DNA from: an uncultured Clostridia bacterium
GTDB lineage: Bacteria; Bacillota; Clostridia; TANB77; CAG-508
Reading direction: 5' to 3'
Assembly: GCA_947625835.1 (NCBI GenBank)
Contig: CANQPY010000001.1
Span: 115,981 to 179,980 of the forward strand
DNA length: 64,000 nt
Shown here: in pieces, positions 3,343-37,010 of the stretch
How positions within the stretch are numbered: the stretch's first letter is position 1
How the letters are laid out: every line of letters starts with the position of its first letter
The notes under the pieces: model-generated
Databases searched by the model: none
Told to the model about the DNA's origin: nothing
What the model saw: the letters and a program-made list of their open reading frames with translations, nothing else
Position numbers and translations under genes: made by a program

Positions 3343-3371
3343 TTGACTCTTTTCCATGTTTCTATTATAAT
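3343..3371 (+). promoter_or_regulatory. early promoter cassette (TTGACT-17-TATAAT)
   Basis: AATAG-TTGACT..TATAAT..GGTAGAAATTAAGTGAGGTA. Confidence 0.75.
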
Positions 3372-3400
3372 ACTGGTAGAAATTAAGTGAGGTATAGAGA

Positions 3401-3889
3401 ATGAAGGTAAGAAAGACATTTACTACTTATGAATTTGATGAAGCAAGTGGTAATATTGAGGAATACTACCATGATGAAATCAAAAAGGTAAAAGCAACAT
3501 CAAAATATAAAGTATATACATCTTTGTTTTTATTGTCCATTCTTCTTTGCATTGCTTTTGCCGCATGTGGTATTGCGTTTGCAGTATGTATAGATGTTAA
3601 TTTTCTACTGTTACTTTTTGGTGTGATTTTTTCGCTTATTCTCACAAATGGATTTGCAAGTCTTCGTGAGGATGAATATAACCATATTTGTCACTATTTA
3701 ACAAATTGGAGTGAAGAAAAGGAAGTAGAAGATAAGTCCCGCAAAGAAGCATGTGAATTAAGCGTTGAGTGGGAAAAGAAATATCCCCTAGAAGCACTGA
3801 TTAAAAAAGCACAACAAACTAAAAGTTGCTACGATATTGCAGAATTGGTGAGATTCCTATTGGAGTACAAAAGTGAAAGGGATTTGTGA
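3401..3889 (+). CDS. membrane protein (two hydrophobic helices)
   Basis: ORF track; SLFLLSILLCIAFAACGIAFAVCI and LLLLFGVIFSLILTNGF segments. Confidence 0.8.
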   Translation: MKVRKTFTTYEFDEASGNIEEYYHDEIKKVKATSKYKVYTSLFLLSILLCIAFAACGIAFAVCIDVNFLLLLFGVIFSLILTNGFASLREDEYNHICHYLTNWSEEKEVEDKSRKEACELSVEWEKKYPLEALIKKAQQTKSCYDIAELVRFLLEYKSERDL

Positions 3890-4109
3890 GAAATGGTGGA
3901 AAAACCATACAAAAGTTTTCCAAATAACTAACTATAAAGAAGATTGGAAGAAAGTGGGTAATAAACCAAGGTTTTGCATTTTCACAAATGGTGGAAAAAG
4001 ATCCAAAGGTGATAAGTGCTACGATTGGACAATGATTCTTGGATATACCATTTTTAATTACACAAATTTTGACCTGCAAAAAACAATACAGAAAAAACAC
4101 AAAAATTAG
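3873..4109 (+). CDS. possible small basic protein (uncertain)
   Basis: ORF track only; non-ATG start, no clear RBS, fills gap before next promoter. Confidence 0.3.
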   Translation: MKGICEKWWKNHTKVFQITNYKEDWKKVGNKPRFCIFTNGGKRSKGDKCYDWTMILGYTIFNYTNFDLQKTIQKKHKN

Positions 4110-4138
4110 TTGATCCTTCCTTTCATATATGATATAAT
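4110..4138 (+). promoter_or_regulatory. early promoter cassette (TTGATC-17-TATAAT)
   Basis: AAAATTAG-TTGATC..TATAAT..ATAGAGAGTGAGGTG. Confidence 0.75.
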
Positions 4139-4163
4139 GGATATAGAGAGTGAGGTGAAAAAC

Positions 4164-4337
4164 ATGTACACAATCTTATCCAAAAACGGAAGAATCCAAG
4201 AAGACGATTTGACAGTAGCCATTAACAAAGCAAAAGAATTGGCTAAACAAACCCAAGGATATGTTACCGTTTCTGAAGTCAGATATGGCAGCGAATGGAT
4301 CATCGTAGCATTTGATGGCAAGTATGACCAAATATAA
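4164..4337 (+). CDS. hypothetical small protein
   Basis: ORF 4110..4337 trimmed to ATG 4164 after GTGAGGTG; promoter lies inside longer ORF. Confidence 0.7.
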   Translation: MYTILSKNGRIQEDDLTVAINKAKELAKQTQGYVTVSEVRYGSEWIIVAFDGKYDQI

Positions 4338-4352
4338 AAGAGAAAAAATACC

Positions 4353-4541
4353 ATGATTATGAGCTTTGTAATTGTTGAATGTAATTCCAAGAACCATTTC
4401 ATCTATAATGCAGAAGAAGAAGTCATTAAAATGTTCGAAATGATCAAGAGAGATAACCTTCCAGGCAATTGGCAATTACGAATCAATGGAAGAATAGCAG
4501 GCAGATTTGTAGGGAAATCGGAGGAAACCTATGGAAATTGA
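4353..4541 (+). CDS. small protein, NLPGxWQ family
   Basis: ORF track; shares ..EEE..K.FE.I...NLPGNWQL with 4531..4818 and 31309..31467. Confidence 0.7.
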   Translation: MIMSFVIVECNSKNHFIYNAEEEVIKMFEMIKRDNLPGNWQLRINGRIAGRFVGKSEETYGN

Positions 4542-4818
4542 AGTCCATTTTAGTGATTTAAATCTTGATAAGCAAAGAGAGATCTATTCGATGCTTGGAA
4601 GTGATGGTGGCTATAACACCAAACCCATTGGAACCATTCATGTAGGTGATTACCAAATCATAGAATACAAGAGTGAAGATCGCTGGGTTTACGACACAGA
4701 AGAAGAGGCACGTACTGCATTTGCAAAAATAGAGGAACAAAATTTACCAGGTATTTGGCAACTTTTCGCCTTACCTCTTTGTAAGATGATTGATGAATTT
4801 ATTGGTCATTCGGACTAA
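4531..4818 (+). CDS. small protein, NLPGxWQ family
   Basis: ORF track; GGAGGAAACCT RBS; ..EEEARTAFAKIEEQNLPGIWQLF. Confidence 0.75.
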   Translation: MEIEVHFSDLNLDKQREIYSMLGSDGGYNTKPIGTIHVGDYQIIEYKSEDRWVYDTEEEARTAFAKIEEQNLPGIWQLFALPLCKMIDEFIGHSD

Positions 4819-4950
4819 AATAAAGGCCAATGTAATAATAATAGGAAAAATATTGTATAACATTGGTGATACTACAAAATCCCTATCAAAGATATTGTAA
4901 CAAATAATAAACAACTACGCTAAATTAATTAGAACAAAGTAATTATAAAT

Positions 4951-5026
4951 GAGAACATGGTCCGAAATGGCTAGGCGGTAGGTTGCAACCCTACATATGC
5001 AGGTTCAAGTCCTGTTGTTCTCTCCA
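4951..5026 (+). tRNA. tRNA-Cys(GCA)
   Basis: Acceptor GAGAACA/TGTTCTC, anticodon stem GTAGG/CCTAC, loop TTGCAAC, T-loop TTCAAGT, CCA. Confidence 0.85.
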
Positions 5027-5038
5027 TTATATATATAT

Positions 5039-5116
5039 CCACACTTAGCATAGATGGCCAAATGCGCCTGCCTGTCACGCAGGAGATCAGGAGTTCGAAT
5101 CTCCTAGTGTGGGCCA
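5039..5116 (+). tRNA. tRNA-Asp(GUC)
   Basis: Acceptor CCACACT/AGTGTGG, stem CCTGC/GCAGG, loop CTGTCAC, T-arm AGGAG-TTCGAAT-CTCCT, CCA. Confidence 0.9.
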
Positions 5117-5165
5117 TTTGTGGGATATTAAGTATCCTGGGATAGCAACCCTTAACAGCTAATCA

Positions 5166-5453
5166 ATATAAATTATATATTGGGACTAATCTGCGGACGA
5201 AAGTCTTTGGATTAAACAACACAGAAACGAAAACTGTGGAGATTGGGGGTTGGCAGAATCGTAACAAGGCTGCCATATATGTAGGGAAATTAGTCGGGGA
5301 AACCGAATGATGCCCGCGAAATGCCATTGAAAAAAATGGTTCCGTAGTGTAGAAACATTACCGTTGGCGTTGAAGACCGAGTTAAACGGCGGGGCTAGAA
5401 CGTGGTTAAAAAGGCGCTGAGAAGGGCGCGTACCCCAAATATATAATTTATAT
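5166..5453 (+). ncRNA. unassigned structured RNA (~288 nt) closed by a long terminal helix
   Basis: ATATAAATTATATATTGGG (5166-84) pairs with CCCCAAATATATAATTTATAT (5433-53). No plausible + strand ORF. Internal hairpins: GAC-GAAA-GTC, CACAG/CTGTG, TGGCAG/CTGCCA, CGG-GGAAA-CCG, CCATT/AATGG. Confidence 0.5.
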
Positions 5454-5458
5454 AACAT

Positions 5459-5535
5459 TGAGGAGTAGTTCAGTTTGGTAGAACGCTTGGTTAGGGACCA
5501 AGAGGTCGCGTGTTCAAATCATGTTTCCTCAACCA
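5459..5535 (+). tRNA. tRNA-Pro(AGG), unusual A34
   Basis: Acceptor TGAGGAG/TTCCTCA, D GTTC/GAAC, stem CTTGG/CCAAG, loop TTAGGGA, T-loop TTCAAAT, CCA. Confidence 0.75.
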
Positions 5536-5808
5536 AAATATAGGTGCACCATTTATTATTATTTCTTTTTTGCCTTAGTCAAGGGGTTATAAGCCCACAA
5601 TTTATGCAAGCGTTTGTAAGGAGTTAGCTTTGAATTAACCTTTGAGGTGGCGACTTTATATAAGCCTATAGAGTATGTCCTAGAGATTGACATACCGTTC
5701 CACGTACGATAAGCGTGTAAACAGTATGGTAGTAGGAATATGGTACCCCACCTACCCGGCAGAACTGATTGCAACAGCATATGATATAGTCCGTTAACTA
5801 TATTTTAT
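5536..5808 (+). ncRNA. ORF-free, relatively GC-rich spacer; possible structured RNA
   Basis: No + strand ORF between two tRNAs; GGTGCACC palindrome; hairpin ATATAGT-ccgtta-ACTATAT + T-run at the 3' end. Confidence 0.3.
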
Positions 5809-5885
5809 TGGGGAATAGCTCAGTTGGTAGTAGCGGCGGTCTGTTAAACCGTAGGTCGTGAGTTCAAGTCTCACTTCCCCAGCCA
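5809..5885 (+). tRNA. tRNA-Asn(GUU)
   Basis: Acceptor TGGGGAA/TTCCCCA, stem GCGGT/ACCGT, loop CTGTTAA, T-arm GTGAG-TTCAAGT-CTCAC, CCA. Confidence 0.85.
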
Positions 5886-5962
5886 TCTTGTGTATATCAG
5901 TTGGTTAGATAGTCGCTCTGATAAGGCGAAAGTCGATAGTTCAAGTCTATCCACAAGAACCA
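5886..5962 (+). tRNA. tRNA-Ile(GAU)
   Basis: Acceptor TCTTGTG/CACAAGA, stem TCGCT/GGCGA, loop CTGATAA, T-arm GATAG-TTCAAGT-CTATC, CCA. Confidence 0.85.
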
Positions 5963-5967
5963 GTTAG

Positions 5968-6006
5968 TACAAGTTAGTTTACTTCTCTTCTACTTGTATT
6001 ATTTTA
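5968..6006 (+). terminator. possible intrinsic terminator after tRNA-Ile
   Basis: TACAAGT..17 nt..ACTTGTA followed by TTATTTTA. Confidence 0.45.
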
Positions 6007-6048
6007 GAAAAGATCAGTAGGATTGGATCCTCTGAAATCATGATTAGG

Positions 6049-6056
6049 TGTATAAT
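6049..6056 (+). promoter_or_regulatory. extended -10-like element TGTATAAT
   Basis: ggTGTATAATg upstream of an ORF-poor segment and tRNA-Glu; same octamer upstream of 18458 and 23677 RNAs. Confidence 0.4.
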
Positions 6057-6255
6057 GTAGGTCTGTTAGGAACAGAATGCCATATTATACAAAATATAAA
6101 AAAGAGGAGTAATAGCAGTAAATGAGATCAGGCCTCGACTCCACTCCGTCTACCTGACTGCTAAAAAGAGAAAGAGTGGGCCTAGGTGTTTGCTGCAGCC
6201 TAGAGTGATACTTCTGTTTGAGTGCACCGAGCAGATAGTAAAGTGCAGCCTAAAT

Positions 6256-6332
6256 GCTGTCTTAGTGGAACAGGCTAACACGCTGGCCCTTCAAGCCGGA
6301 GATTGCGGGTTCGAGCCCCGCAGGCAGTACCA
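6256..6332 (+). tRNA. tRNA-Glu(UUC), C32-C33 loop
   Basis: Acceptor GCTGTCT/AGGCAGT (2 G:U), stem CTGGC/GCCGG, loop CCTTCAA, T-arm GCGGG-TTCGAGC-CCCGC, ACCA. Confidence 0.7.
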
Positions 6333-6338
6333 ATAAAT

Positions 6339-6414
6339 GGCTCCGTAGCACAATTGGTGGTGCAAGCGCCTCATACGCGTTAGGTTACTAGTTCAAACCT
6401 AGTCGGAGCCACCA
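6339..6414 (+). tRNA. tRNA-Met(CAU)
   Basis: Acceptor GGCTCCG/CGGAGCC, loop CTCATAC, T-arm ACTAG-TTCAAAC-CTAGT, CCA. Confidence 0.85.
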
Positions 6415-6431
6415 GTATTATATTTTTATAT

Positions 6432-6507
6432 CCCAGGGTGGTAGCAGTGGTAGCTCGTGAGCCCCATAAGCTCGAGGTCGTTGGTTCGAACCCAACCCCT
6501 GGAACCA
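6432..6507 (+). tRNA. tRNA(CAU) second copy (Met, fMet or Ile2 undetermined), C1-A72 mismatch, C32-C33
   Basis: Acceptor CCCAGGG/CCCTGGA, stem TGAGC/GCTCG, loop CCCATAA, T-arm GTTGG-TTCGAAC-CCAAC, CCA. Confidence 0.75.
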
Positions 6508-6634
6508 TTTTTTGCCTAACTATCAAGGCATTGTATTGATAGTCCTGTAATAGATAAAGTTACCATTGGTAACTACTAGGTAAAGGTAGTACCCCTCACT
6601 TTTTTCTTTTCAATTTATTCTGGGAGGCAATATT

Positions 6635-6910
6635 TTGGAAGAATTGGATTTAACAAAAACTATTGAATTTGAAGTGCTTGGAGATATCAAGCCTACCATA
6701 GTTGAAATTCTTGGTAGTTATGAGACTTGGATGTCCAGTGATTGTGATCTGCACTTAAAAGGGACACTTATAAGCTTACCAGCATATTGCAAATGGTTAA
6801 CTTATTATGGCAGTTTTCATGATATAAGAGATATGTCAACAGAACAAAGAATTATAAAGGCTCTGTATGAAAAAGGTCTTATTAAAGTTCATTATGTAAG
6901 ACCTGAATAA
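6635..6910 (+). CDS. hypothetical protein (TTG start)
   Basis: ORF track; TTG preceded by GGGAGG 6622-6627. Confidence 0.65.
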   Translation: MEELDLTKTIEFEVLGDIKPTIVEILGSYETWMSSDCDLHLKGTLISLPAYCKWLTYYGSFHDIRDMSTEQRIIKALYEKGLIKVHYVRPE

Positions 6911-6997
6911 TTTTTATTTTTTAACAACAGCGTGACCAAGATCTGATTTGGCCGTAAAGATATTCATTTTGATTACCTGGGAAAAGGTTTTCAAAGT

Positions 6998-7169
6998 GGA
7001 CGCCCTGAGAAATTGTTTTTCTCAGTTAAACTTGAAAAACCATCGAAAGATGATTGTATAAATAAGTGGGATGTCTTAGATTTGTGTCTAAGCGGCGAAA
7101 ATATTGTTTACGATATTTTCATTTCCAGGTGACCCGTAATAACAAGGGGTTCAAATCCCCTGGCGTCCA
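6998..7169 (+). ncRNA. 172-nt RNA with tRNA-type acceptor and T-arm but about 130 nt between them (tmRNA-like or interrupted tRNA, unresolved)
   Basis: GGACGCC (6998-7004) pairs with GGCGTCC (7162-68). T-arm AGGGG-TTCAAAT-CCCCT. Internal hairpins CTGAGAA/TTCTCAG, CATC-GAAA-GATG, CTTAGA/TCTAAG, AAAATAT/ATATTTT. No CCA encoded. Confidence 0.45.
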
Positions 7170-7207
7170 TCCGTGGGCGCGAGATCGGTCTGAGGGTACA
7201 CCTTTAT

Positions 7208-7282
7208 GCACGAGTGGTATATAGGCTTGTGCCTCGGCCCTCCAAGCCGATGAAGCCAGTTCGACTCTGGTCTCGTGCTCCA
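7208..7282 (+). tRNA. tRNA-Gly(UCC), C32-C33 loop
   Basis: Acceptor GCACGAG/CTCGTGC, stem TCGGC/GCCGA, loop CCTCCAA, T-arm GCCAG-TTCGACT-CTGGT, CCA. Confidence 0.8.
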
Positions 7283-7284
7283 AT

Positions 7285-7360
7285 GCTGGCGTAGCTCAAT
7301 TGGCAGAGCAAGGGTTTTGTAAACCCTAGGTTGTCAGTTCAATTCTGACCGCCAGCTCCA
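7285..7360 (+). tRNA. tRNA-Thr(UGU)
   Basis: Acceptor GCTGGCG/CGCCAGC, stem AGGGT/ACCCT, loop TTTGTAA, T-arm GTCAG-TTCAATT-CTGAC, CCA. Confidence 0.9.
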
Positions 7361-7367
7361 AAATTAT

Positions 7368-7443
7368 GGGGGAATAGCTCAGTTGGTAGAGCGCCTGCCC
7401 TGCAAGCAGGAGGTCGTGCGTTCGAATCGCATTTCTTCCACCA
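7368..7443 (+). tRNA. tRNA-Ala(UGC), C32-C33 loop
   Basis: Acceptor GGGGGAA/TTCTTCC, stem CCTGC/GCAGG, loop CCTGCAA, T-arm GTGCG-TTCGAAT-CGCAT, CCA. Confidence 0.85.
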
Positions 7444-7445
7444 AA

Positions 7446-7538
7446 AATTACTTTCCCTTATAATTTGCGGGGTAGCTTAATCTTCATAGAGCGTCGTCAT
7501 CCCGGTATGAAATCCGGGCCCCGCAAGGGAAAGTAATT
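7446..7538 (+). ncRNA. anticodon-less tRNA-like RNA enclosed by a 14-bp stem (Y-RNA/YrlA-like architecture), copy 1
   Basis: AATTACTTTCCCTT (7446-59) pairs with AAGGGAAAGTAATT (7525-38). 58-nt core GCGGGG..CCCCGC has the hairpin CCCGG-N8-CCGGG and no anticodon arm. Confidence 0.55.
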
Positions 7539-7551
7539 ATAATATGATCAT

Positions 7552-7806
7552 ATAGTTTACTGAGCTATTGGTACTTACTTCTTATTTAATTATCATGGAA
7601 AATTAGCATAGTACTAAAATATATTGTAAACTATTTGAATTTTTATTTACCTCACAGCTAGTAGTCCTTACTTCGCTTATAGCAACAATCTTTTAAATTG
7701 TAACTAGGACTACAATAAGAACATTTTTTATCTCAAAGCTATTGTGGCTTACTTCTAACATAATCGCATTTAAAATTATTATAGAGTCACAAAATATTCT
7801 TTGAGA
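7552..7806 (+). repeat. three long imperfect hairpins sharing the motif AGCTAnTnGTnCTTACTTC
   Basis: Motif at 7563-81, 7656-74, 7737-55. Stems ATAGTTTAC/GTAAACTAT, GTAGTCCT/AGGACTAC, TCTCAAAG/CTTTGAGA. Confidence 0.6.
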
Positions 7807-7825: not shown

Positions 7826-9931
7826 ATGGAGGCAGATATGGAAGATCTTTATAAAAATTACTTGTTCAGTAAGGGATTTCTAGTTAGTGATCCTAAGGGA
7901 TCTCATGAACCCCAAGATGTTTTCAGTTCCCTAATTGGTCTTGGTAAACTATTTGGTATTGTAGTTACTAAACAGGCTAATCTTGCAGATGTAGCTATGA
8001 TCCATACTGCAGAGGAATGTTTAGGAGGGATTCATATAGCTGAACCTTTCTATAGAGGCTTTCCAGGCAGTGTTCTTAAATTAACTAGAGATCAATTAAT
8101 TATAGATCAACTTTATTCCTATTTTATTACTTATGGGATGGATGATTTTGAAGGTGAAGGGACAAGATCTATATTTGAGGACCAAATAAAGAGGGATGTA
8201 CTTAATGAAAAGACAGACCCTAAATATTTTGAAATTTTAACGGAAGAACAGGCATTTGAAAAGCTTGATAGTTATGTTGATGATCTTTTACTATCTACAA
8301 GACCTCTTAATGCTACCCAGTACAATCTAGTGAAAACCGTGGTTAACAGAAATATGGACCTCAATATAAAGTCTTTTAAAATTGCCAGTAAGAATACTGC
8401 AATAAAATTGCTAGTTGATACTAGATTAGAGTTATTTGCTGAGAGATTTCTTACTCTTCCTGACACTATTAAAGTTGTTGAGGAACTACTTAATACCCGT
8501 TATCCTGATCAAAAAATTAATAAACTTAACCTTACAAATAAGGATAGAAAGTTTGTTGGATGCTTGATCTTTGTTCTTACTCGTAAGGCTACAGAAAACC
8601 AGATGAGGGAATGTCTTGAGAAGAGAAAGATATGGAAGGGACTTCTCCATCATATTCATCTTAATCCTAGAAATCCTCGTGCACCTAGAAATAAGAATGA
8701 GGAAACATTTATCAAGATGATTTTTGATGATAGCCAACGCTCATGTTTGTCTTCTGTAGAATATTATATTAGCACTGGAAAAATTCACCAAGCTTGTGAT
8801 GTTTTAAAAACTACAAAAGGTGCTACTGCAGTTCTTAGAAATATGAATTATCTTCTTAGTAGATGTAAGACAGATGAAGATAAAGATTATGTAATAGAAA
8901 GTGCGTTTGAATCAAATTCCCCCATTGTTCTTATTCAGCAATTGTACAATTATTATAATTACGATACTGATAATAATGATTGCAGAACATTCAAATTTAC
9001 TAAGAATAATCTCTTTGTAGTTCATAAAGAAACAGCAGAGGAAAATTCAAGAAGAAAGTCATATATTACAGCTAAAGATAAGGAAAAGATAGCTCTTAAA
9101 CTTGAAAATAAACTCCAAGATGTTCTTAAGAACAGATTAGGTAAAGTTTATATAGATCCAGATATGGTCAATATTGCAGTTCCTATTCAAGAGACTACAG
9201 GCAATTCAGGTTATGGAGTACTTACTAGAGGAAGTAGAATTCCCCTTGATAGTAGAATAGTTAGATTGTTTACATATTGGGAAAAGGTAAACGATATTGA
9301 CTTATCAGCTATTGCCATAATGAATGATGGGAAGGCAACAGAATTTTCTTGGAGAACATTTGCGTCTATTCAAAACAACATTATTTGTTTCTCTGGAGAC
9401 CAAACAAGAGGCTATAATGGGGGTTCTGAATATATTGATGTAGATGTTGATAATTTCAAAGCCTACTATCCTGATGCTAAATATCTAATAGTTTGTGATA
9501 ACGTATTCTCAGGTGTTCCATTTGATTCTTGTGAATGTGCAGCTGGGTATATGGTACGCCAAGAAGTAAATAGTGGAGAAGTATTTGAGCCTAAGACAGT
9601 TAAAACACTGTTTTCAGTTAAAGGTAATTCAACTTTCTCCTACTTATTTGCAATTGATTTAGATACCAAAGAAATGGTATGGCTAAATGTAATGAGGGAT
9701 AGTAATGAAACTGTAGCTGGGACTACTGACCTTAAATTCCTTATTCCTTATATTGAATCTGTAAATGCTCTTAATTTGTATAAATTATTTACTTATTTAG
9801 CTACAGAAGTTGTAGATAATATGGGGGATGCAGATGTAATTGTGACAGACAAAGCACTAAAAGGTTTTGGGGATTGTCAAACACTTATTCATAGTAATGA
9901 TATTGAAAAAATCATGAAGCTAATTAACTAA
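7826..9931 (+). CDS. 701-aa protein: helical N-terminal region + C-terminal TerD-like domain (possible divergent Ro/TROVE-like protein)
   Basis: ORF track (alternative in-frame ATG 7838 after GGAGG). C-terminus NDIDLSAIAIMNDGK..FSGDQTRGYNGGSEYIDVDVD..YLIVCDNVF fits the TerD pattern. RKIWKGLLHHIHLNPRN weakly resembles Ro60 GWSHKDLLRLSHLKP. Confidence 0.85.
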   Translation: MEADMEDLYKNYLFSKGFLVSDPKGSHEPQDVFSSLIGLGKLFGIVVTKQANLADVAMIHTAEECLGGIHIAEPFYRGFPGSVLKLTRDQLIIDQLYSYFITYGMDDFEGEGTRSIFEDQIKRDVLNEKTDPKYFEILTEEQAFEKLDSYVDDLLLSTRPLNATQYNLVKTVVNRNMDLNIKSFKIASKNTAIKLLVDTRLELFAERFLTLPDTIKVVEELLNTRYPDQKINKLNLTNKDRKFVGCLIFVLTRKATENQMRECLEKRKIWKGLLHHIHLNPRNPRAPRNKNEETFIKMIFDDSQRSCLSSVEYYISTGKIHQACDVLKTTKGATAVLRNMNYLLSRCKTDEDKDYVIESAFESNSPIVLIQQLYNYYNYDTDNNDCRTFKFTKNNLFVVHKETAEENSRRKSYITAKDKEKIALKLENKLQDVLKNRLGKVYIDPDMVNIAVPIQETTGNSGYGVLTRGSRIPLDSRIVRLFTYWEKVNDIDLSAIAIMNDGKATEFSWRTFASIQNNIICFSGDQTRGYNGGSEYIDVDVDNFKAYYPDAKYLIVCDNVFSGVPFDSCECAAGYMVRQEVNSGEVFEPKTVKTLFSVKGNSTFSYLFAIDLDTKEMVWLNVMRDSNETVAGTTDLKFLIPYIESVNALNLYKLFTYLATEVVDNMGDADVIVTDKALKGFGDCQTLIHSNDIEKIMKLIN

Positions 9932-11976: not shown

Positions 11977-12005
11977 TTGATTCCTTTCTTGTTGTTTATT
12001 ACAAT
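11977..12005 (+). promoter_or_regulatory. early promoter cassette (TTGATT-17-TACAAT)
   Basis: AAAATAG-TTGATT..TACAAT upstream of 12032. Confidence 0.7.
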
Positions 12006-18457: not shown

Positions 18458-18533
18458 CGGCGAGTACCCGAGGGGTGAAGGGTCTAATCTTATAAATTAG
18501 TTGCCGTCTGTTCGAGTCAGACCTCGCCGACCA
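18458..18533 (+). tRNA. tRNA-Ile(UAU)
   Basis: TGTATAAT at 18421-28. Acceptor CGGCGAG/CTCGCCG, stem CTAAT/ATTAG, loop CTTATAA, T-arm GTCTG-TTCGAGT-CAGAC, CCA. Confidence 0.8.
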
Positions 18534-18603
18534 GTAACATTTTTCTCAAATATCTCTTTTTGTTATAAAATAAAATAGAGGATCCCAAATATGAATTCCA
18601 GGC

Positions 18604-18675
18604 ATCACTGTAGTTCAAAGGTTTGATCGTCGCTAGTCAGAGCGAAGATAGGAGGTTCGATTCCTCCCGGTGAGA
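18604..18675 (+). tRNA. tRNA-like gene with 6-nt (or 8-nt) anticodon loop, no CCA
   Basis: T-arm GGAGG-TTCGATT-CCTCC; acceptor ATCACTG/CGGTGAG (6 bp); anticodon arm TCGCT-AGTCAG-AGCGA. Confidence 0.4.
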
Positions 18676-18702
18676 GGTTTGTGAAGGCATATTTGGATAA
18701 AT

Positions 18703-18774
18703 AATCCCTTGGTGTAATTGGTAACATGCGAGTGACGAGATCACGTGATGTAGGTTCGAATCTTACAGGGATGT
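18703..18774 (+). tRNA. degenerate tRNA-like gene (anticodon stem 3/5 paired)
   Basis: T-arm GTAGG-TTCGAAT-CTTAC, D GTGT/ACAT, acceptor AATCCCT/AGGGATG; 17-nt anticodon region CGAGT-GACGAGA-TCACG pairs poorly. Confidence 0.35.
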
Positions 18775-18866
18775 GCAGCACCCCTTACCAGAGGGGAAAT
18801 TGAACTGCTGAGCAGTCTAGCGAATGGAGGTCCTGGCAGACCAACAGGAGCGAAGGGCTGCAATAT

Positions 18867-18952
18867 CGGGGTGTGGCGTAATGGCAGCCGCATAGCACTT
18901 AAAATGCTAGGTCCTTAGTGACGTGTGGGTTCAAGTCCCACCACCCCGACCA
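18867..18952 (+). tRNA. tRNA-Leu(UAA)
   Basis: Acceptor CGGGGTG/CACCCCG, stem TAGCA/TGCTA, loop CTTAAAA, long variable arm, T-arm GTGGG-TTCAAGT-CCCAC, CCA. Confidence 0.9.
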
Positions 18953-19109
18953 GCGCTATAACCTCACTTGAGGCTACTTAGAAACCAGGTCTTGTAAATT
19001 CTTCCTTATTAGAATTTACTTTAATTAGATCTTGTTGCGGAACATAAGTTCCTGTTTTATTTAGTTTCTCCTTATCTCTTCTAATTAAAAAGAGATAAAA
19101 AAAAAATAT

Positions 19110-19119
19110 TGCTAAATTA
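19110..19119 (+). promoter_or_regulatory. TGCTAAATTA motif (extended -10-like, class II promoter candidate)
   Basis: One of five exact copies; most lie 33-41 nt upstream of a start codon. Confidence 0.5.
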
Positions 19120-19250
19120 GATGTACATTAAAGGATAGGAGATTTATTCATGAAACGCTTTTGGCATAAATATTTTACAAAACTGAATAATCCCTATGTG
19201 ATTTCTTAATGTAGATTTTTCCGAATTCTTTCCATATTTCTTTATCCTAA

Positions 19251-19287
19251 GGGAGACTTCGTGTGTTTTCTGCATATGAAGTCTCCC
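19251..19287 (+). promoter_or_regulatory. 10-bp leader hairpin upstream of 19317
   Basis: GGGAGACTTC-17 nt-GAAGTCTCCC followed by a T-rich tract, between the motif at 19110 and the CDS. Confidence 0.4.
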
Positions 19288-19316
19288 CATTCTTTATTTC
19301 CCAGGAGAATATGTAA

Positions 19317-20174
19317 ATGCAATTAAAAGAAAGAACGCCCTATATGGTACGCAATGATGGTGAAATATTTGAATGCTGTTTTATGCACCCATACATTTTA
19401 AAAGATGTTAATGCTCCTTTTGAAGTTAATATAAATTATATTGCAATGTTTCCTGAGCAAATTAATTGGTTTGTAGAGCATTCTAAACAAAATTTGAAAT
19501 CTCTTTTAAATGATTGTTTCCAATGCTTAACAGATTGTGTTATGAGTCTTGATAATAACACTGCAAAAAAGACATTTGGAATGGAACATGTAGATTTAGA
19601 AAATGCATTAAAGGTTATAGGTCCTAATATTGCGCCTAATTTTATAGATGAGGTTAATACCAATTGCATTAAGAGCTGTGAGGCTGCTTGGAAAGAACTA
19701 AATAGTAGGCTTAATCAGGAATTTTTAAGGGCTAGAATGAATGGTAAATATTGGCAAGGATTAGGCAAAGATATATATTTTAGAATTAGCTCTTTTGATT
19801 TCAACTGGTTTGATATCATTTGGAATCTAATTCATGATAATCAAAATCAGCTTTCTTCTGTTACCATTTCTGCAGATCCTCAAGCTGGAAAAACCATAGG
19901 ACATGAAGTATATGTTATTAGTGGTAAGCCTGTAGATCATAGGGATATTGATGAGTTTCTTGAATTACCCGGAAATCCTCTTGTAGAAGATATGGAAAAT
20001 GAAAAAATAACTAAATTAAATCAAGGTATGTTCCTTAATGATATATTCCCTGATTTTGGTTATTTTCATAATACCGGAATATATGAAGCATATCGGGATA
20101 TTTACATTAGAACCCATTTCGTCGAAAGCAAAAAATCAAATAAGAGGGTATTTCTAAATAGGAGAGTCGTCTAG
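19317..20174 (+). CDS. hypothetical protein, paralogue of 27793..28497
   Basis: ORF track; shared PYMVRNDGEIF..HPYI, IYFRI..FNWFDIIW..DNQN, NKRVFL; last 15 nt overlap tRNA-Trp. Confidence 0.8.
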   Translation: MQLKERTPYMVRNDGEIFECCFMHPYILKDVNAPFEVNINYIAMFPEQINWFVEHSKQNLKSLLNDCFQCLTDCVMSLDNNTAKKTFGMEHVDLENALKVIGPNIAPNFIDEVNTNCIKSCEAAWKELNSRLNQEFLRARMNGKYWQGLGKDIYFRISSFDFNWFDIIWNLIHDNQNQLSSVTISADPQAGKTIGHEVYVISGKPVDHRDIDEFLELPGNPLVEDMENEKITKLNQGMFLNDIFPDFGYFHNTGIYEAYRDIYIRTHFVESKKSNKRVFLNRRVV

Positions 20175-20235
20175 CGGTCTAGGATAGTGGTCTCCAAAAC
20201 CATTGACTGGGGTTCGAATCCCTGCTCTCCTGCCA
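20160..20235 (+). tRNA. tRNA-Trp(CCA)
   Basis: Acceptor AGGAGAG/CTCTCCT, stem GTGGT/ACCAT, loop CTCCAAA, T-loop TTCGAAT, CCA. Confidence 0.85.
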
Positions 20236-20263
20236 TAATGTTTTCAGTTATGTTAAGGAATAG

Positions 20264-20292
20264 TTGATTTCAATACTCTTTTATATTATAAT
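20264..20292 (+). promoter_or_regulatory. early promoter cassette (TTGATT-17-TATAAT)
   Basis: GGAATAG-TTGATT..TATAAT..ATAGAAATTGGAGG. Confidence 0.75.
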
Positions 20293-20318
20293 GTTGATAG
20301 AAATTGGAGGTATTATAT

Positions 20319-20567
20319 ATGTTAACTGTACAAGAAGTTACTGATGTATTATTTGCAGTAGGCGCAGATGTAGAACTTTATGATGTACGTGGTACCAATC
20401 TTCTTAAAAATCCTAACCAACCTGAAACAACATACCCCACAGTTCCTTATTACAGAGCATTCTGTGAAAAGCACATTGCAGGATTTGAGGATAGAGAAGT
20501 AGTCGGGATGTTCACCAGGTGGGATGATGATTTTAAGGAATCTATAGTACACCTTATTATAAAGTAA
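20319..20567 (+). CDS. hypothetical protein
   Basis: ORF 20304..20567 trimmed to ATG 20319 after GGAGG. Confidence 0.75.
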   Translation: MLTVQEVTDVLFAVGADVELYDVRGTNLLKNPNQPETTYPTVPYYRAFCEKHIAGFEDREVVGMFTRWDDDFKESIVHLIIK

Positions 20568-20578
20568 TTTTAAAATAG

Positions 20579-20606
20579 TTGATTTTTTTTTTGTTTATTA
20601 TATAAT
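20579..20606 (+). promoter_or_regulatory. early promoter cassette (TTGATT-16-TATAAT)
   Basis: AAAATAG-TTGATT..TATAAT..GTAGAAAATAGGGTGAGGTG. Confidence 0.7.
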
Positions 20607-20635
20607 AGATGTAGAAAATAGGGTGAGGTGAATAA

Positions 20636-20953
20636 ATGAAAATTACTTGTCCTTACTGCAACCAGGAAGTTGAAATGGATTGGAGATGCCCTCATTGCCA
20701 TAACCGCATTGCATACGATATCAATAACGAATTGGAAAGAATCAATCCTCATAGGATATGGCAAAAATTGCAGTTTAGAAGGGAAGATTACGCAATTCAT
20801 TGTAAAAACCATTTGGATAAAAATAATATTTCTACGAAAGAAATACAGAAAGTAGATGACCATTATTTGGTTTATTATATGCCAATTGGTAAAGAACAAA
20901 GTGAATGGTGCCACGAGTTAGTTACTCAGTTAGTGGATCTTTGCTTATTTTAA
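20636..20953 (+). CDS. zinc-ribbon-type small protein
   Basis: ORF track; CPYCN..(9)..CPHCHN. Confidence 0.8.
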   Translation: MKITCPYCNQEVEMDWRCPHCHNRIAYDINNELERINPHRIWQKLQFRREDYAIHCKNHLDKNNISTKEIQKVDDHYLVYYMPIGKEQSEWCHELVTQLVDLCLF

Positions 20954-20959
20954 TTACAT

Positions 20960-21034
20960 GTGGTCTGTGGTGTAATGGTAGCACGGAGGATTGTGGCCCC
21001 TCAGGTGAGAGTTCAATTCTCTCCTTTCCAACCA
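20960..21034 (+). tRNA. tRNA-His(GUG)-like, acceptor stem only 4/7 paired (possible pseudogene)
   Basis: D GTGT/GCAC, loop TTGTGGC, T-arm GAGAG-TTCAATT-CTCTC, ACCA; acceptor TGGTCTG versus CTTTCCA. Confidence 0.4.
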
Positions 21035-21111
21035 GGTGCCTTGGTGGAACTGGATAACACGTCAGCCTCTCAAGCTGAAGATTATGCGTTCGAGCCGCAT
21101 AGGCATCACCA
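21035..21111 (+). tRNA. tRNA-Glu(CUC)
   Basis: Acceptor GGTGCCT/AGGCATC, stem TCAGC/GCTGA, loop CTCTCAA, T-arm ATGCG-TTCGAGC-CGCAT, CCA. Confidence 0.85.
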
Positions 21112-21164
21112 ATGTAAAACGAACCTGTTCTTCAAAGCTTCCGCAGTGAGAGAAGCGAATATAT

Positions 21165-21239
21165 GTCGGGTTAGCTCAACGGTAGAGCGCCTGTTTTACA
21201 CGCAGGAGGTTGTTGGGTCAGCACCAGCACTCGGTACCA
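21165..21239 (+). tRNA. tRNA-Val(UAC), non-canonical T-loop
   Basis: Acceptor GTCGGGT/ACTCGGT (3 G:U), stem CCTGT/GCAGG, loop TTTACAC, T-arm GTTGG-GTCAGCA-CCAGC, CCA. Confidence 0.7.
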
Positions 21240-21390
21240 TAAGGAAAGTAGTTGGCTTGATAGCCTAATGAAACCTTAACACCTGTCTTTTAATTCTTAA
21301 TTAGGAAACCACCCCTTAGTACCTAACTTATCAATAGGGAACAGGGGAGGAAATGTGGGGTAGAAAGAAGCCCGCCAGGTGTATAAATAT

Positions 21391-21463
21391 GCTGGTATAG
21401 CCTAGCGGATCAGGCAACCGCCTTCTAAGCGGTTTTAGGTGGGTTCAACTCCTACTACCAGTG
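21391..21463 (+). tRNA. tRNA-Arg(UCU), CCA not encoded
   Basis: Acceptor GCTGGTA/TACCAGT, stem ACCGC/GCGGT, loop CTTCTAA, T-arm GTGGG-TTCAACT-CCTAC. Confidence 0.85.
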
Positions 21464-21585
21464 GATTCCCGATAAACATTACCTTCACGTGGTGGGAATT
21501 GATAATTATCCATTTGGGATAAGCCAAACATGTTTAAAAACCCTTAGATTTAGGGTTCGAATTTGCCAAGCTATACCATAAACAT

Positions 21586-21629
21586 ATGCTAAATTATCCG
21601 AACATACATAGAAAAGGATAATTTAGCAT
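21586..21629 (+). promoter_or_regulatory. 14-bp hairpin pairing the TGCTAAATTA motif with the RBS and start codon of the homing endonuclease gene
   Basis: ATGCTAAATTATCC (21586-99) is the exact reverse complement of GGATAATTTAGCAT (21616-29); ATG is at 21628. Confidence 0.6.
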
Positions 21630-29901: not shown

Positions 29902-30132
29902 ATGCTTAACAGAACTACACAGTTTGAAGATATTTTTATTATGTGGGACCCAGATATTTTTGATACTTCCATGACCTGGAAAGGGGTTGTAAATTATAAG
30001 AAACAAAAAGGGATGTCTCCCAAGGGCTGTGTTGTGCTAACCATGGAAGAATATCAAGCAGTTATGGAGCTGATTGATGAAGTTAAATGGCAAGCATTTG
30101 ATGCTGGGATTAAAGAAGGACAAGGCGATTAA
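29902..30132 (+). CDS. hypothetical protein
   Basis: ORF 29887..30132 trimmed to ATG 29902 after GAGTGAGG. Confidence 0.75.
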   Translation: MLNRTTQFEDIFIMWDPDIFDTSMTWKGVVNYKKQKGMSPKGCVVLTMEEYQAVMELIDEVKWQAFDAGIKEGQGD

Positions 30133-30133
30133 G

Positions 30134-31117
30134 ATGCAATATATTTATGTAATGGTTGGGCTTCCCGGAAGTGGTAAGAGTACGCTTACCAAGGAAATTT
30201 TGAAATTTCAACATTCTAATTTTGGGGTTGCAGTGGTCTCCTCAGATATGATTAGAGAAGAATTGACTGGGGATGAGGGTAATCAGGAACATAATGAAGA
30301 AGTTTTTAAACTTTATTATGATACCTTTAAGGGGCATCTTAGGGCAGGGCGCGATGTTGTTCTTGATGCAACCAACATTAATATCAAGGCAAGAAAGCAG
30401 GTCTTTATGCATTTGAACGAATATTTTAAAGACACTGAAAACTATAATGTACATAATCAGTCTCGTCAGGATTTCAAAATTATTGCTTGTGTACTACCCA
30501 CGTCTTTCTGGGAATGTGTAAGAAGGGATAGCCTTCGTAAGAGATCTGTGGGCGAAGATGTAATTCGTAAGATTATGAGTAACTTTCAATTTCCCCAGAA
30601 ATACGAAGGGTTTGATGAGATCTTTATTGAAGGGTATATGAGCGCCAATATGGGCCTTTATGACCAATATAAGGCGCAAGCATTTATGGATAAAATGTCC
30701 ACGTTTGACCAAAAGAATCCCCATCACAAATTTACCCTTCTCAAACATAGTACGGCGCTTGAAGCACTTTGTATGAATGATCCTGTTATGAAAGTTGCAG
30801 GTCTTTGGCATGATGTAGGTAAATTATTTACGCAACAAATTGATGAAAATGGGGTTGCGCATTATTATGGGCATGATTCTGTAGGTACGTATTTTCTCCT
30901 TGATAATTTGAATGTTTTTGGGCTTAGCAATTGGAATAATATTTTTGAAGTTTTATTTTATATTAATTTTCATATGAAAGCTCATAAAGACCTAAGAAAC
31001 CCCAAAGCCGAAAGAAAATATAGGAATTTGTTTGGTAATAATAGGTATGATAGATTGATTGATTTTGCAAATAAGGATATGGTTGCCTCTGGAATGTTTG
31101 AGGAATATAAGAATTAA
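30134..31117 (+). CDS. P-loop polynucleotide-kinase-like domain fused to an HD phosphohydrolase domain
   Basis: ORF 30074..31117 trimmed to ATG 30134. VMVGLPGSGKSTL..SSDMIREE..VVLDATN. C-terminal LKHS..GLWHDVGK..YYGHDSVG..HMKAH. Confidence 0.75.
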   Translation: MQYIYVMVGLPGSGKSTLTKEILKFQHSNFGVAVVSSDMIREELTGDEGNQEHNEEVFKLYYDTFKGHLRAGRDVVLDATNINIKARKQVFMHLNEYFKDTENYNVHNQSRQDFKIIACVLPTSFWECVRRDSLRKRSVGEDVIRKIMSNFQFPQKYEGFDEIFIEGYMSANMGLYDQYKAQAFMDKMSTFDQKNPHHKFTLLKHSTALEALCMNDPVMKVAGLWHDVGKLFTQQIDENGVAHYYGHDSVGTYFLLDNLNVFGLSNWNNIFEVLFYINFHMKAHKDLRNPKAERKYRNLFGNNRYDRLIDFANKDMVASGMFEEYKN

Positions 31118-35255: not shown

Positions 35256-36488
35256 ATGAAGCTTTCAAATAACATCAAAAAGATTTTTAAGCTTTTCCAA
35301 CAATTTAATAAGCAAATCTACCTTGTTGGTGGTTGTGTAAGAGATATTGTAATGGGGAATACTCCTCATGATTATGATTTTACTACAAATGCAACTCCTG
35401 ATGAAATGAAAGAGATTGCTAAAAGTGCAAATATTGAAATTATTCCTACTGGCGAAAAATATGGTACTCTTACTTTTCATATTGATAATGAATTTTATGA
35501 GATCACAACATTCAGATCCGATGGAAATTATAGTGATGGAAGAAGACCAGATGAAGTTGTTTTTTCTAAAGAGTTGAGGGATGATCTTTGTAGAAGAGAT
35601 TTTACTTTTAATTCCATGTGTTTTTCCTTTGATGAGAAAAATAATGGGGTTAAGTTAATTGATATCTATAATGGTAGGAAAGACATTGAAAGTGGGGTTG
35701 TAAATACCATTGGTAAAGCAGAGGATAGATTTAATGAAGATGCATTGAGAATTCTTAGAGCAATTAGATTTGCTTATAAATTTGGGTTTAATCTTTCCTT
35801 AGATATTAGAAGAGCAATTTCCAAGCAGGTAAATCTTCTTAATAATGTTTCTATGGAAAGGATTAGAGAGGAAATTTTCAAGATCCTAGAATACTATAAG
35901 CCCAGTGAAATCAATGATAAATCATTGCAAATTGTTCTTAATAAGATTTTGGGTGGTTCTAATATTGATTTTATAGATGAATTTGGTGAAAATATCCTTA
36001 TTGAAACTAGATTGCTTTATGTTTTAAATTTTAAATTGAATAGAGAAGAAATTAATAATAAGTTGGTTGAATTGAAATGCAGTAATAAATTTATTAAAGA
36101 TTCTCTTACAATTTATGACTGTTTTAAATGCCTTGAATATTATAAAAAACAAGAGGATTTGAGATTTGCCTTTAAGAAATGTTTGAATAGGTGTAATAAA
36201 GATTTTAATCTTTTTACCCAGTCCCTTATTTTGTTTATTAATAATAATATTGAATTTCTCTTTGATTATGAAGATCTTATTAGATTGGGCCAAACCATTT
36301 TGGAAAATAATGAACCAATCACCCTTGCAGATCTTGTAATTAATGGGGATGACCTTAATGGTTGGGGGATTAAAGGAAAGAAATGTGGGGAATTGCTTGA
36401 GACAATCCAGGAAAAAGTTTGGTTGGATCCTGCATTTAATAGTAAAGAAACAATTAAAGAATTTGTTAAGGTTAAAGCTACCTGTTAA
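35256..36488 (+). CDS. cca: tRNA nucleotidyltransferase (CCA-adding enzyme)
   Basis: LVGGCVRDIVMGNTPHDYDFTT, ..GTLTF..EITTFR, RRDFTFNS, ALRILRAIRFA. Confidence 0.9.
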   Translation: MKLSNNIKKIFKLFQQFNKQIYLVGGCVRDIVMGNTPHDYDFTTNATPDEMKEIAKSANIEIIPTGEKYGTLTFHIDNEFYEITTFRSDGNYSDGRRPDEVVFSKELRDDLCRRDFTFNSMCFSFDEKNNGVKLIDIYNGRKDIESGVVNTIGKAEDRFNEDALRILRAIRFAYKFGFNLSLDIRRAISKQVNLLNNVSMERIREEIFKILEYYKPSEINDKSLQIVLNKILGGSNIDFIDEFGENILIETRLLYVLNFKLNREEINNKLVELKCSNKFIKDSLTIYDCFKCLEYYKKQEDLRFAFKKCLNRCNKDFNLFTQSLILFINNNIEFLFDYEDLIRLGQTILENNEPITLADLVINGDDLNGWGIKGKKCGELLETIQEKVWLDPAFNSKETIKEFVKVKATC

Positions 36489-36764: not shown

Positions 36765-37010
36765 GAGTTTTTAACTTTAATTGAAAAAAGTTAAAAACTC
36801 ATATACACATACACATATATATATATACGACGTTATGATATATATTTAGATATGTCTAATGATATATATATATATCTAGATATATATATCATAATATGTC
36901 TGACGATATATATCTGACGACATGTCTGCTAACATTTTCGATACTTAAGTTTTCGATGCTAAAAACTTAAGTACATAGGTTTTTGATGCTAAAAATTTTA
37001 TATCTAAAAT
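36765..37010. repeat. AT-repeat, palindrome and iteron region (origin, packaging or regulatory candidate)
   Basis: 13-bp hairpin GAGTTTTTAACTT/AAGTTAAAAACTC. (TA)n tracts. Palindrome ATGATATATATATATAT-CTAG-ATATATATATCAT (36859-92). ATGTCT and TCTGACGA repeats. TTTTyGATGCTAAAAA repeated 2-3 times. Confidence 0.6.

Follow-up and report, generated by a model that had tools for sequence, protein, structure and literature searches.

Results

The locus and its phage setting

The element lies at positions 5166-5453 of the window (i.e. the whole stretch of 64,000 nucleotides that was analysed), between the genes for tRNA-Asp(GUC) and tRNA-Pro(AGG) in the 24-tRNA island of the contig C1. All the genes and tRNAs around the element are on the + strand, and the coordinates of the features are collected in Table 1. 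The anticodon of the tRNA-Pro at 5459-5535, AGG (with A34), is unusual among bacteria and phages.

The window was taken from positions 115981-179980 of C1. This contig is 198.9 kb long and has a G+C content of 32.9%, while the other contigs of the assembly (1.9 Mb in 86 contigs) average 27.1%. C1 encodes terminase-like and tail-fibre-like proteins, a GIY-YIG homing endonuclease, a CCA-adding enzyme and an AAA_33 protein (polynucleotide-kinase-like, with a weak HD match). It also carries 24 of the 49 tRNA genes of the assembly, as called by ARAGORN. From the G+C contrast with the bin, the phage-type genes and the 24 tRNAs, C1 is best read as a jumbo-phage contig that was binned into the MAG of an A+T-rich, small-genome bacterium. 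The putative link between this phage and its host comes from the binning only. Public sequencing runs assigned C1 to the rabbit gut, and no RNA run was listed among those that contain the sequence. The MAG has a contamination of 6.7%, and the phage contig may account for most of that figure.

We made some further observations on the tRNA genes of the window. The AAA_33 kinase and the CCA-adding enzyme (30074-31117; 35256-36488) are encoded downstream of the tRNA islands, suggesting a phage toolkit for tRNA repair and maturation. A dense cluster of nested, (TA)n-rich palindromes (36801-36914) directly follows the gene of the CCA-adding enzyme. Three Rfam tRNA matches that ARAGORN did not call (22623-22701, 22829-22912 and 23257-23402) adjoin the GIY-YIG homing endonuclease gene at 21628-22560. 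The last of these matches is 146 nt long, and it may represent a tRNA with a large insert or an intron.

Table 1. Coordinates, in the window, of the flanking genes, the predicted parts of the element and its diverged copies from other gut metagenomes.
Feature	Positions	Strand	Description	Pair probability
tRNA-Asp(GUC), upstream flank	5039-5116	+	CCA encoded	
Spacer, tRNA-Asp to element	5117-5165		49 nt, unstructured; fold z -0.4	
5' arm	5166-5184	+	16 A/T positions + GGG	0.94 (16-bp part), 0.61 (GGG/CCC)
H1	5187-5214	+	7-bp outer stem, 1x1 internal loop, 4-bp inner stem, GAAA loop	0.89, 0.99
H2	5220-5238	+	5-bp stem, 9-nt A-rich loop	0.99
H3	5251-5275	+	6-bp stem, 13-nt loop	0.96
H4	5284-5315	+	4+4 bp, 1x1 internal loop, GGAAA loop	0.90, 0.96
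H5	5323-5340	+	6-bp stem, A-rich loop	0.96
H6	5344-5361	+	7-bp stem, AGAA loop	0.96
H7	5367-5403	+	imperfect arm, poorly defined	0.42-0.64
H8	5414-5429	+	5-bp G+C-rich stem, GAGAAG loop	0.99
3' arm	5433-5453	+	pairs with 5' arm; ends 5 nt before tRNA-Pro 5' end	
tRNA-Pro(AGG), downstream flank	5459-5535	+	CCA encoded	
Copy, X6 record 8	5166-5277		contig of 574 nt; 4 differences, 1 gap; 96% identical	
Copy, X7 record 16	5185-5300		20 differences	
Copy, X7 record 17	5275-5397		13 differences, 1 gap	
Copy, X5 record 2	5203-5397		contig of 636 nt; 21 differences, 11 gap positions	

A 19-bp terminal helix closes the element

The earlier note had claimed that the ends of the element pair in a terminal helix of about 19 bp, and both the fold and an inverted-repeat search gave the same result (16 + 3 bp). 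Positions 5166-5181 pair with 5438-5453 in 16 perfect A-U pairs, and the helix continues past a 1-nt bulge, where GGG (5182-5184) pairs with CCC (5434-5436), to a total of 19 bp.

We further examined how exceptional this stem is. The arms are unique within the contig, and the stem is the longest perfect long-range inverted repeat (i.e. with its halves 50-600 nt apart) of the whole 199-kb contig. When the contig was shuffled in composition-preserving blocks, a perfect long-range inverted repeat of at least 16 nt appeared in 3 of the 30 shuffles. Two repeats tie for second place, and one of them (7446/7525, 14 nt) is in the same 2.5-kb island, where it closes another non-tRNA RNA, which is small and tRNA-like. 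As this tied-second repeat also closes an RNA, closing stems appear to be a design feature of the island.

The arms are A+T-rich and both contain -10-like hexamers. They might therefore act at the DNA level as a promoter or operator, in which case the complementarity would be incidental and the RNA would start past the 5' arm. A weak sigma-70-like match (TTAACA-N18-TATATT, 5152-5181) does overlap the 5' arm, and a TATAAT at 5441-5446 stands 13 nt before tRNA-Pro. If the promoter at 5152-5181 were used, the transcript would start near 5188 and the stem could not form, and this counts against the reading of the element that we prefer (an RNA gene; see Discussion). One of the diverged copies also has homology starting at 5185, as a DNA-level signal would allow, and in the related locus L004 an inverted repeat of similar geometry consists of two palindromic promoters round a small gene.

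The comparison of the arms speaks against such a signal. They match 16/16 as an inverted repeat and at best 13/16 as a direct repeat, so that they are not two copies of one palindromic promoter, and the pairing reaches into GGG/CCC, which is not palindromic. The inverted complementarity of the arms is real. Moreover, the strong promoters of this phage have the near-consensus form TTGATT-N17-TATAAT with a palindromic, A+T-rich -10 region, and a good -35 is absent at both arms. The region does not exceed chance in its number of promoter-like matches either (9 found, 10.5 expected). We consider a purely DNA-level role of the arms to be quite improbable.

Sites of the strong promoter type were observed in the window at 917-945, 1225-1253, 3343-3371, 4110-4138 and 11977-12005. 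The nearest of these to the element is 4110-4138, and no convincing terminator was found before the element, so that co-transcription with the tRNAs is the default assumption.

The locus L004 also provided a case that we rejected. Its segment 902-1189, an apparent analogue of the element, turned out to be two near-palindromic TTGATT-N17-TATAAT promoters flanking a small gene that has a ribosome-binding site. The promoter sites in L004 are at 886-926 and 1150-1190; promoter pairs of this kind can mimic inverted repeats. Elsewhere in L004 (1508-1612), upstream of the tRNA island, a 16-nt stem with 94% complementarity closes a 73-nt stretch that is richer in G+C, and its geometry resembles that of a module at 7446-7538 of the window.

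The element is G+C-rich and has no coding capacity

The interior of the element has a G+C content of 0.45-0.49, which is the level of the tRNA genes. The tRNA-free 200-nt windows of the contig have 0.327 +/- 0.042, placing the interior in the top 0.2%, in keeping with the GC-richness that had been noticed from the letters. The + strand of the element is G-rich, with a GC skew of about +0.3.

No + strand ORF was found within 5166-5453 in any of the three frames, each of which has several stops. Since TAA is present in every + frame, no single stop-codon reassignment opens an ORF on this strand. The ORFs of the element (90 aa and 54 aa) are antisense, which agrees with the earlier observation that the sole ORF here was antisense.

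We considered whether the antisense 90-aa ORF (5186-5458, - strand) could be a real protein gene, it being the only sizeable ORF in the stretch. No relative of it was found among 5.8 billion proteins, and its orientation is opposite to that of all the neighbouring genes. Opposite a strand rich in G and A, one expects the antisense frame to be open, and the 11 gap positions in the 195 nt of one diverged copy would break the frame. It is thus scarcely credible as a gene.

The interior is predicted to form a row of local hairpins

For the whole element, the fold energy on the + strand is -89.2 kcal/mol, as against -66.0 +/- 4.4 for its shuffles (z -5.3), and the z score on the - strand is -3.2. 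The terminal helix contributes most of this value of -5.3. When folded alone, the interior (5185-5433) gave z scores of -2.1 to -2.3 on the + strand and -0.5 on the - strand, so that the + strand folds better than the - strand in the whole element and in its core. For the part present in diverged copies (5185-5397), we obtained z scores of -1.3 to -1.6. Three coding controls from the window scored -1.7, +0.2 and -1.9. The global fold energy of the interior is therefore only modestly better than expected by chance, and it is not better than that of the best-folding coding controls.

The signal is stronger in the local pairs. We counted as confident those pairs with a probability above 0.9 and a span of up to 40 nt. 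The interior has 33 of them, as compared to 8.6 +/- 7.0 in dinucleotide shuffles, and none of the 150 shuffles reached 33. At least seven hairpins have a mean pair probability of >=0.9. Among the hairpins are GAC-GAAA-GUC (5195-5206) and UCGG-GGAAA-CCGA (5294-5306), so that the at least six hairpins, with one GAAA and one GGAAA loop, that had been claimed for the element are all accounted for. H1 (5187-5214) and H4 (5289-5311) have a common layout, in which a 1x1 internal loop separates an outer stem of A-U pairs from a 4-bp G-C stem with the GAAA or GGAAA loop. In the centroid structure H4 may extend further, with 5284-5286 pairing with 5313-5315 (GGG/CCC). These predictions suggest stable hairpins in a row within a long clamp, with no demonstrably intricate global fold.

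We also folded other spacers of the island. The spacer 5963-6255 gave a z score of -3.6 (+ strand), and 6508-7207 gave -5.5 and -5.2 on its two strands. The spacer 5536-5808 folds no better than its shuffles (z -0.6).

The element matches no known RNA family

When the window was searched with Rfam 15 at gathering scores, tRNAs were the only matches. A second search, with permissive filters and E values up to 10, covered 2.7 kb (4900-7600). Here the element yielded one noise-level match, to RAGATH-33, with 15 bits against a gathering score of 120.

The earlier note had refrained from calling the element RNase P and had named RNase P, group I, group II and tmRNA as the families to check in Rfam. 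None of them matched at E values up to 10. The caution over RNase P was well placed, as neither RF00010 nor RF00011 matched, whether at gathering score or with E values up to 10. Two short segments of the element loosely resemble CR-I and CR-V of RNase P, and we examined whether they could form its P4 helix. The CR-I-like segment GACGAAAGUC forms a local GAAA hairpin (pair probability 0.99), and by inspection the CR-I-like and CR-V-like segments pair over at most 4 positions, without the canonical bulged U.

Other families were evaluated in the same way. ARAGORN in tmRNA mode found no tmRNA in the window or in the contig, and there was no Rfam tmRNA match. The element has the location that is typical of the GOLLD and ROOL RNAs (in a phage, adjoining tRNA genes), but RF01998 and RF03087 gave no match. 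The model of YrlA (bacterial Y RNA, RF02553) matched weakly over tRNA pairs elsewhere in the island, with no match in 5166-5456. SRP RNA, 6S RNA and T-box had no Rfam support. That the element has diverged from one of the established catalytic or stable RNA families (RNase P RNA, tmRNA, group I or group II introns, GOLLD, ROOL or YrlA) would fit its genomic position and the two RNase P-like segments. With these results this explanation is largely refuted, and we regard it as extremely improbable.

Two of the three candidates put forward in the earlier note lose ground here. An intron remnant is rejected, given the lack of a group I or II Rfam match and the place of the element, which is between complete tRNA genes and not inside one. 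The reading as a large ribozyme-like RNA is unsupported, since the interior is a string of local hairpins and the global fold signal is modest. The third, a novel non-coding RNA co-transcribed with the tRNAs, is the survivor and the best supported of the three, as a candidate rather than a demonstrated RNA.

Diverged copies occur in other gut metagenomes

We looked for homologues of the element at several distances. A blastn search in distant mode against 50,697 phage records found none. BLAST of its own assembly returned the element itself only, i.e. it is present in a single copy in 1.9 Mb, and in 40 relatives and 400 genomes from the family of the bin only chance matches (17-37 nt) came up. 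The neighbouring 701-aa protein (7826-9931) was used as an anchor to collect 174 related loci (14 from IMG/VR, 80 from GTDB genomes and 80 from metagenomes; about 2.6 Mb). The element was absent from these loci by nhmmer and blastn, and from the full records of the five nearest relatives. We also built a single-sequence covariance model, with the predicted fold of the element as its structure, and it found no homologue in the anchored loci, in the assembly that contains C1, in the five records or in 150 genomes of the family. IMG/VR was scanned with five patterns (two exact, three hybrid R/Y), and all of these scans were empty.

Among the loci anchored on the 701-aa protein, the closest with DNA is L017, from a rabbit-gut 'Bacilli' MAG, with 61% identity. 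Its tRNA order (Ile-Leu-...-Trp-His-Glu-Val-Arg) is that of the window at 18458-21464. There are also two protein relatives, P0001 at 96% and P0002 at 86%.

We aligned the assemblies of four further gut runs, which came from two other studies, to 3400-7800 of the window. Diverged copies of the element were present in three further gut metagenomes (Table 1), so that it is found in more than one assembly. The copies have identities of about 83-89%, with one at 96%, and the neighbouring spacers have about 84-87%; the element is thus no better conserved than the spacers.

In X6, 463 nt that are unlike the window precede the match, which starts exactly at 5166, where the 5' arm has its outer edge. 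The X5 and X7 matches, which start at 5185 or 5203, end at 5397, inside H7. The surroundings, and perhaps the arms, therefore vary between the copies. As two of the copies span 5185 or 5203 to 5397, conservation may not extend to the arms of the stem and the hairpin on the 3' side. In one X5 contig the end of tRNA-Asp (5116) is joined to 5609, with about 65 other letters between, and this contig is without the element and tRNA-Pro(AGG) together. In this respect the element behaves like a cassette.

In other gut samples the island shows many clean replacements and deletions (5900-7400), with a cassette-like mosaicism. For example, 130 nt at 6123-6254 are replaced by 142 nt, 595 nt are inserted at 6915-6951, and two tRNA-Met genes are skipped at 6332-6634. 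The island is a mosaic of cassettes, of which the element, probably with tRNA-Pro, is one.

A mobile element or a neutral spacer

An element with such ends could also be a MITE-like, non-autonomous mobile element that inserted beside tRNA-Pro, with the 19-bp arms as the terminal inverted repeats recognised by a transposase. The arms do form perfect terminal inverted repeats. The match in the 96% copy sets in just where the left arm has its outer edge, and one relative lacks the element. However, the deletion in that relative (5116 to 5609) takes tRNA-Pro as well, so that it is not a precise empty site, and no target-site duplication is visible in the flanks (AATCA and AACAT). The element is in a single copy in the 1.9-Mb assembly, with unique arms, and no transposase gene was noticed nearby. 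Strings of G+C-enriched hairpins are also not typical of MITEs. A mobile element of this type is improbable.

The serious one among the rival explanations is a neutral spacer, i.e. the decaying remnant of old island cassettes (tRNA or RNA genes) that is passively transcribed and discarded in tRNA maturation, its stem being a matter of chance or a recombination scar. Several of the results above agree with it: the interior has a fold energy near that of the best-folding coding controls, the copies are conserved to the same degree as the neighbouring spacers, and relatives differ in this mosaic island by many insertions, deletions and replacements. The element is also an orphan, with no homologue in the roughly 2.6 Mb of related loci, the five whole records and the family genomes (400 by BLAST, 150 by the model). 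Against this, junk in a phage of 33% G+C should drift towards A+T, and the element stands at 0.45-0.49. Decay would not be expected to yield so many confident hairpins, nor so exceptional a terminal stem, and no trace of a tRNA was found in Rfam at E values up to 10. On balance, we consider a neutral remnant to be unlikely.

Discussion

A candidate RNA gene of a phage tRNA operon

Several features of the element are established: a stem formed by its ends, no coding capacity, a G+C content like that of tRNAs, better folding on the + strand, an excess of local hairpins, and diverged copies in other samples. The explanation that we prefer, to which we give about even chances, is that the element is the gene for a non-coding RNA of about 250-290 nt and a module of the phage tRNA operon. 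For such an RNA we infer transcription, processing, stability and any function.

Promoters upstream of the island would drive transcription of the + strand, in which the element would be joined to the flanking tRNAs. A cut by RNase P at the 5' end of tRNA-Pro would leave a tail of only 5 nt on the 3' side of the terminal stem. From here two routes can be proposed. The host RNase III, for which a gene is present in the bin, could cut the 19-bp stem and free a G+C-rich core of roughly 250 nt. Alternatively, the stem could stay as a clamp and shield both ends from exonucleases. The released RNA would carry about seven stable hairpins with purine-rich, partly GNRA-type loops, and could bind a partner. 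Its pairing, as an antisense or a decoy, with the 49 tRNAs in the assembly did not exceed that of shuffled controls; rRNA genes are absent from the bin.

The RNase III route has known counterparts. In Bacillus subtilis, the scRNA precursor has a closing stem that Bs-RNase III cleaves on its opposite sides (PMC1935012). In RNase III stems of this kind (rRNA and the Bacillus scRNA), a long helix is formed from the 5' and 3' flanks, and the element has a comparable predicted stem of 19 bp together with an RNase III in the bin. The 16 + 3 bp, with one bulge, provide the two turns or so of double-stranded RNA that are expected for an RNase III stem, so that by analogy the stem, with its classical layout and its about 19 bp, may be a substrate. 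The element differs from the processed precursors in that its stem is almost pure A-U, and the enclosed RNA is neither SRP RNA nor rRNA.

Comparison with other RNAs of phage tRNA islands

The tRNA region of phage T4 gives rise to two stable non-tRNA RNAs, RNAC and RNAD (species 1 and 2), whose role is still unknown (PMC3014915). These are non-tRNA RNAs inside a phage tRNA cluster, as the element is predicted to be, and the T4 pair is transcribed with the cluster (PMC3014915). The likeness is one of position: the element belongs to another host and phage lineage, and no sequence kinship with the T4 RNAs is expected.

GOLLD (RF01998) and ROOL (RF03087) are large structured RNAs of phages and prophages that are often found near tRNA islands; they are possibly co-transcribed with tRNAs, and their function is unknown (PMC5737381; bioRxiv 10.1101/2024.12.08.627333). 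They measure 580-800+ nt and have multistem junctions and pseudoknots backed by covariation, whereas the element has 288 nt and local hairpins predicted from a single sequence. By its position, the element would belong with T4 RNAC/RNAD, GOLLD and ROOL, i.e. with the stable non-tRNA RNAs among phage tRNA genes.

In size, RNAC and RNAD are about 120-140 nt, and the element is about twice as large.

A wider and more tentative possibility, which we hold to be doubtful at present, is that the element represents a broad, unpublished class. These would be cassette-like, stem-closed RNAs among the tRNA genes of large phages, released by RNase III and RNase P and exchanged with adjacent tRNAs (here tRNA-Pro(AGG)). 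They might act in trans on host translation or on tRNA-targeting defence.

The element is a single-sequence candidate, and its value is that of a lead and not of a result. Its closing stem, the adjacent RNase P site and its cassette-like inheritance with the rare tRNA-Pro(AGG) make for easy testing in vitro. Phage tRNA islands hold non-tRNA RNAs whose function has been unsolved for decades, as with T4 RNAC/RNAD, GOLLD and ROOL. If the element does encode a real processed RNA, it would be a compact example, of about 290 nt, from the tRNA island of an animal-gut jumbo phage.
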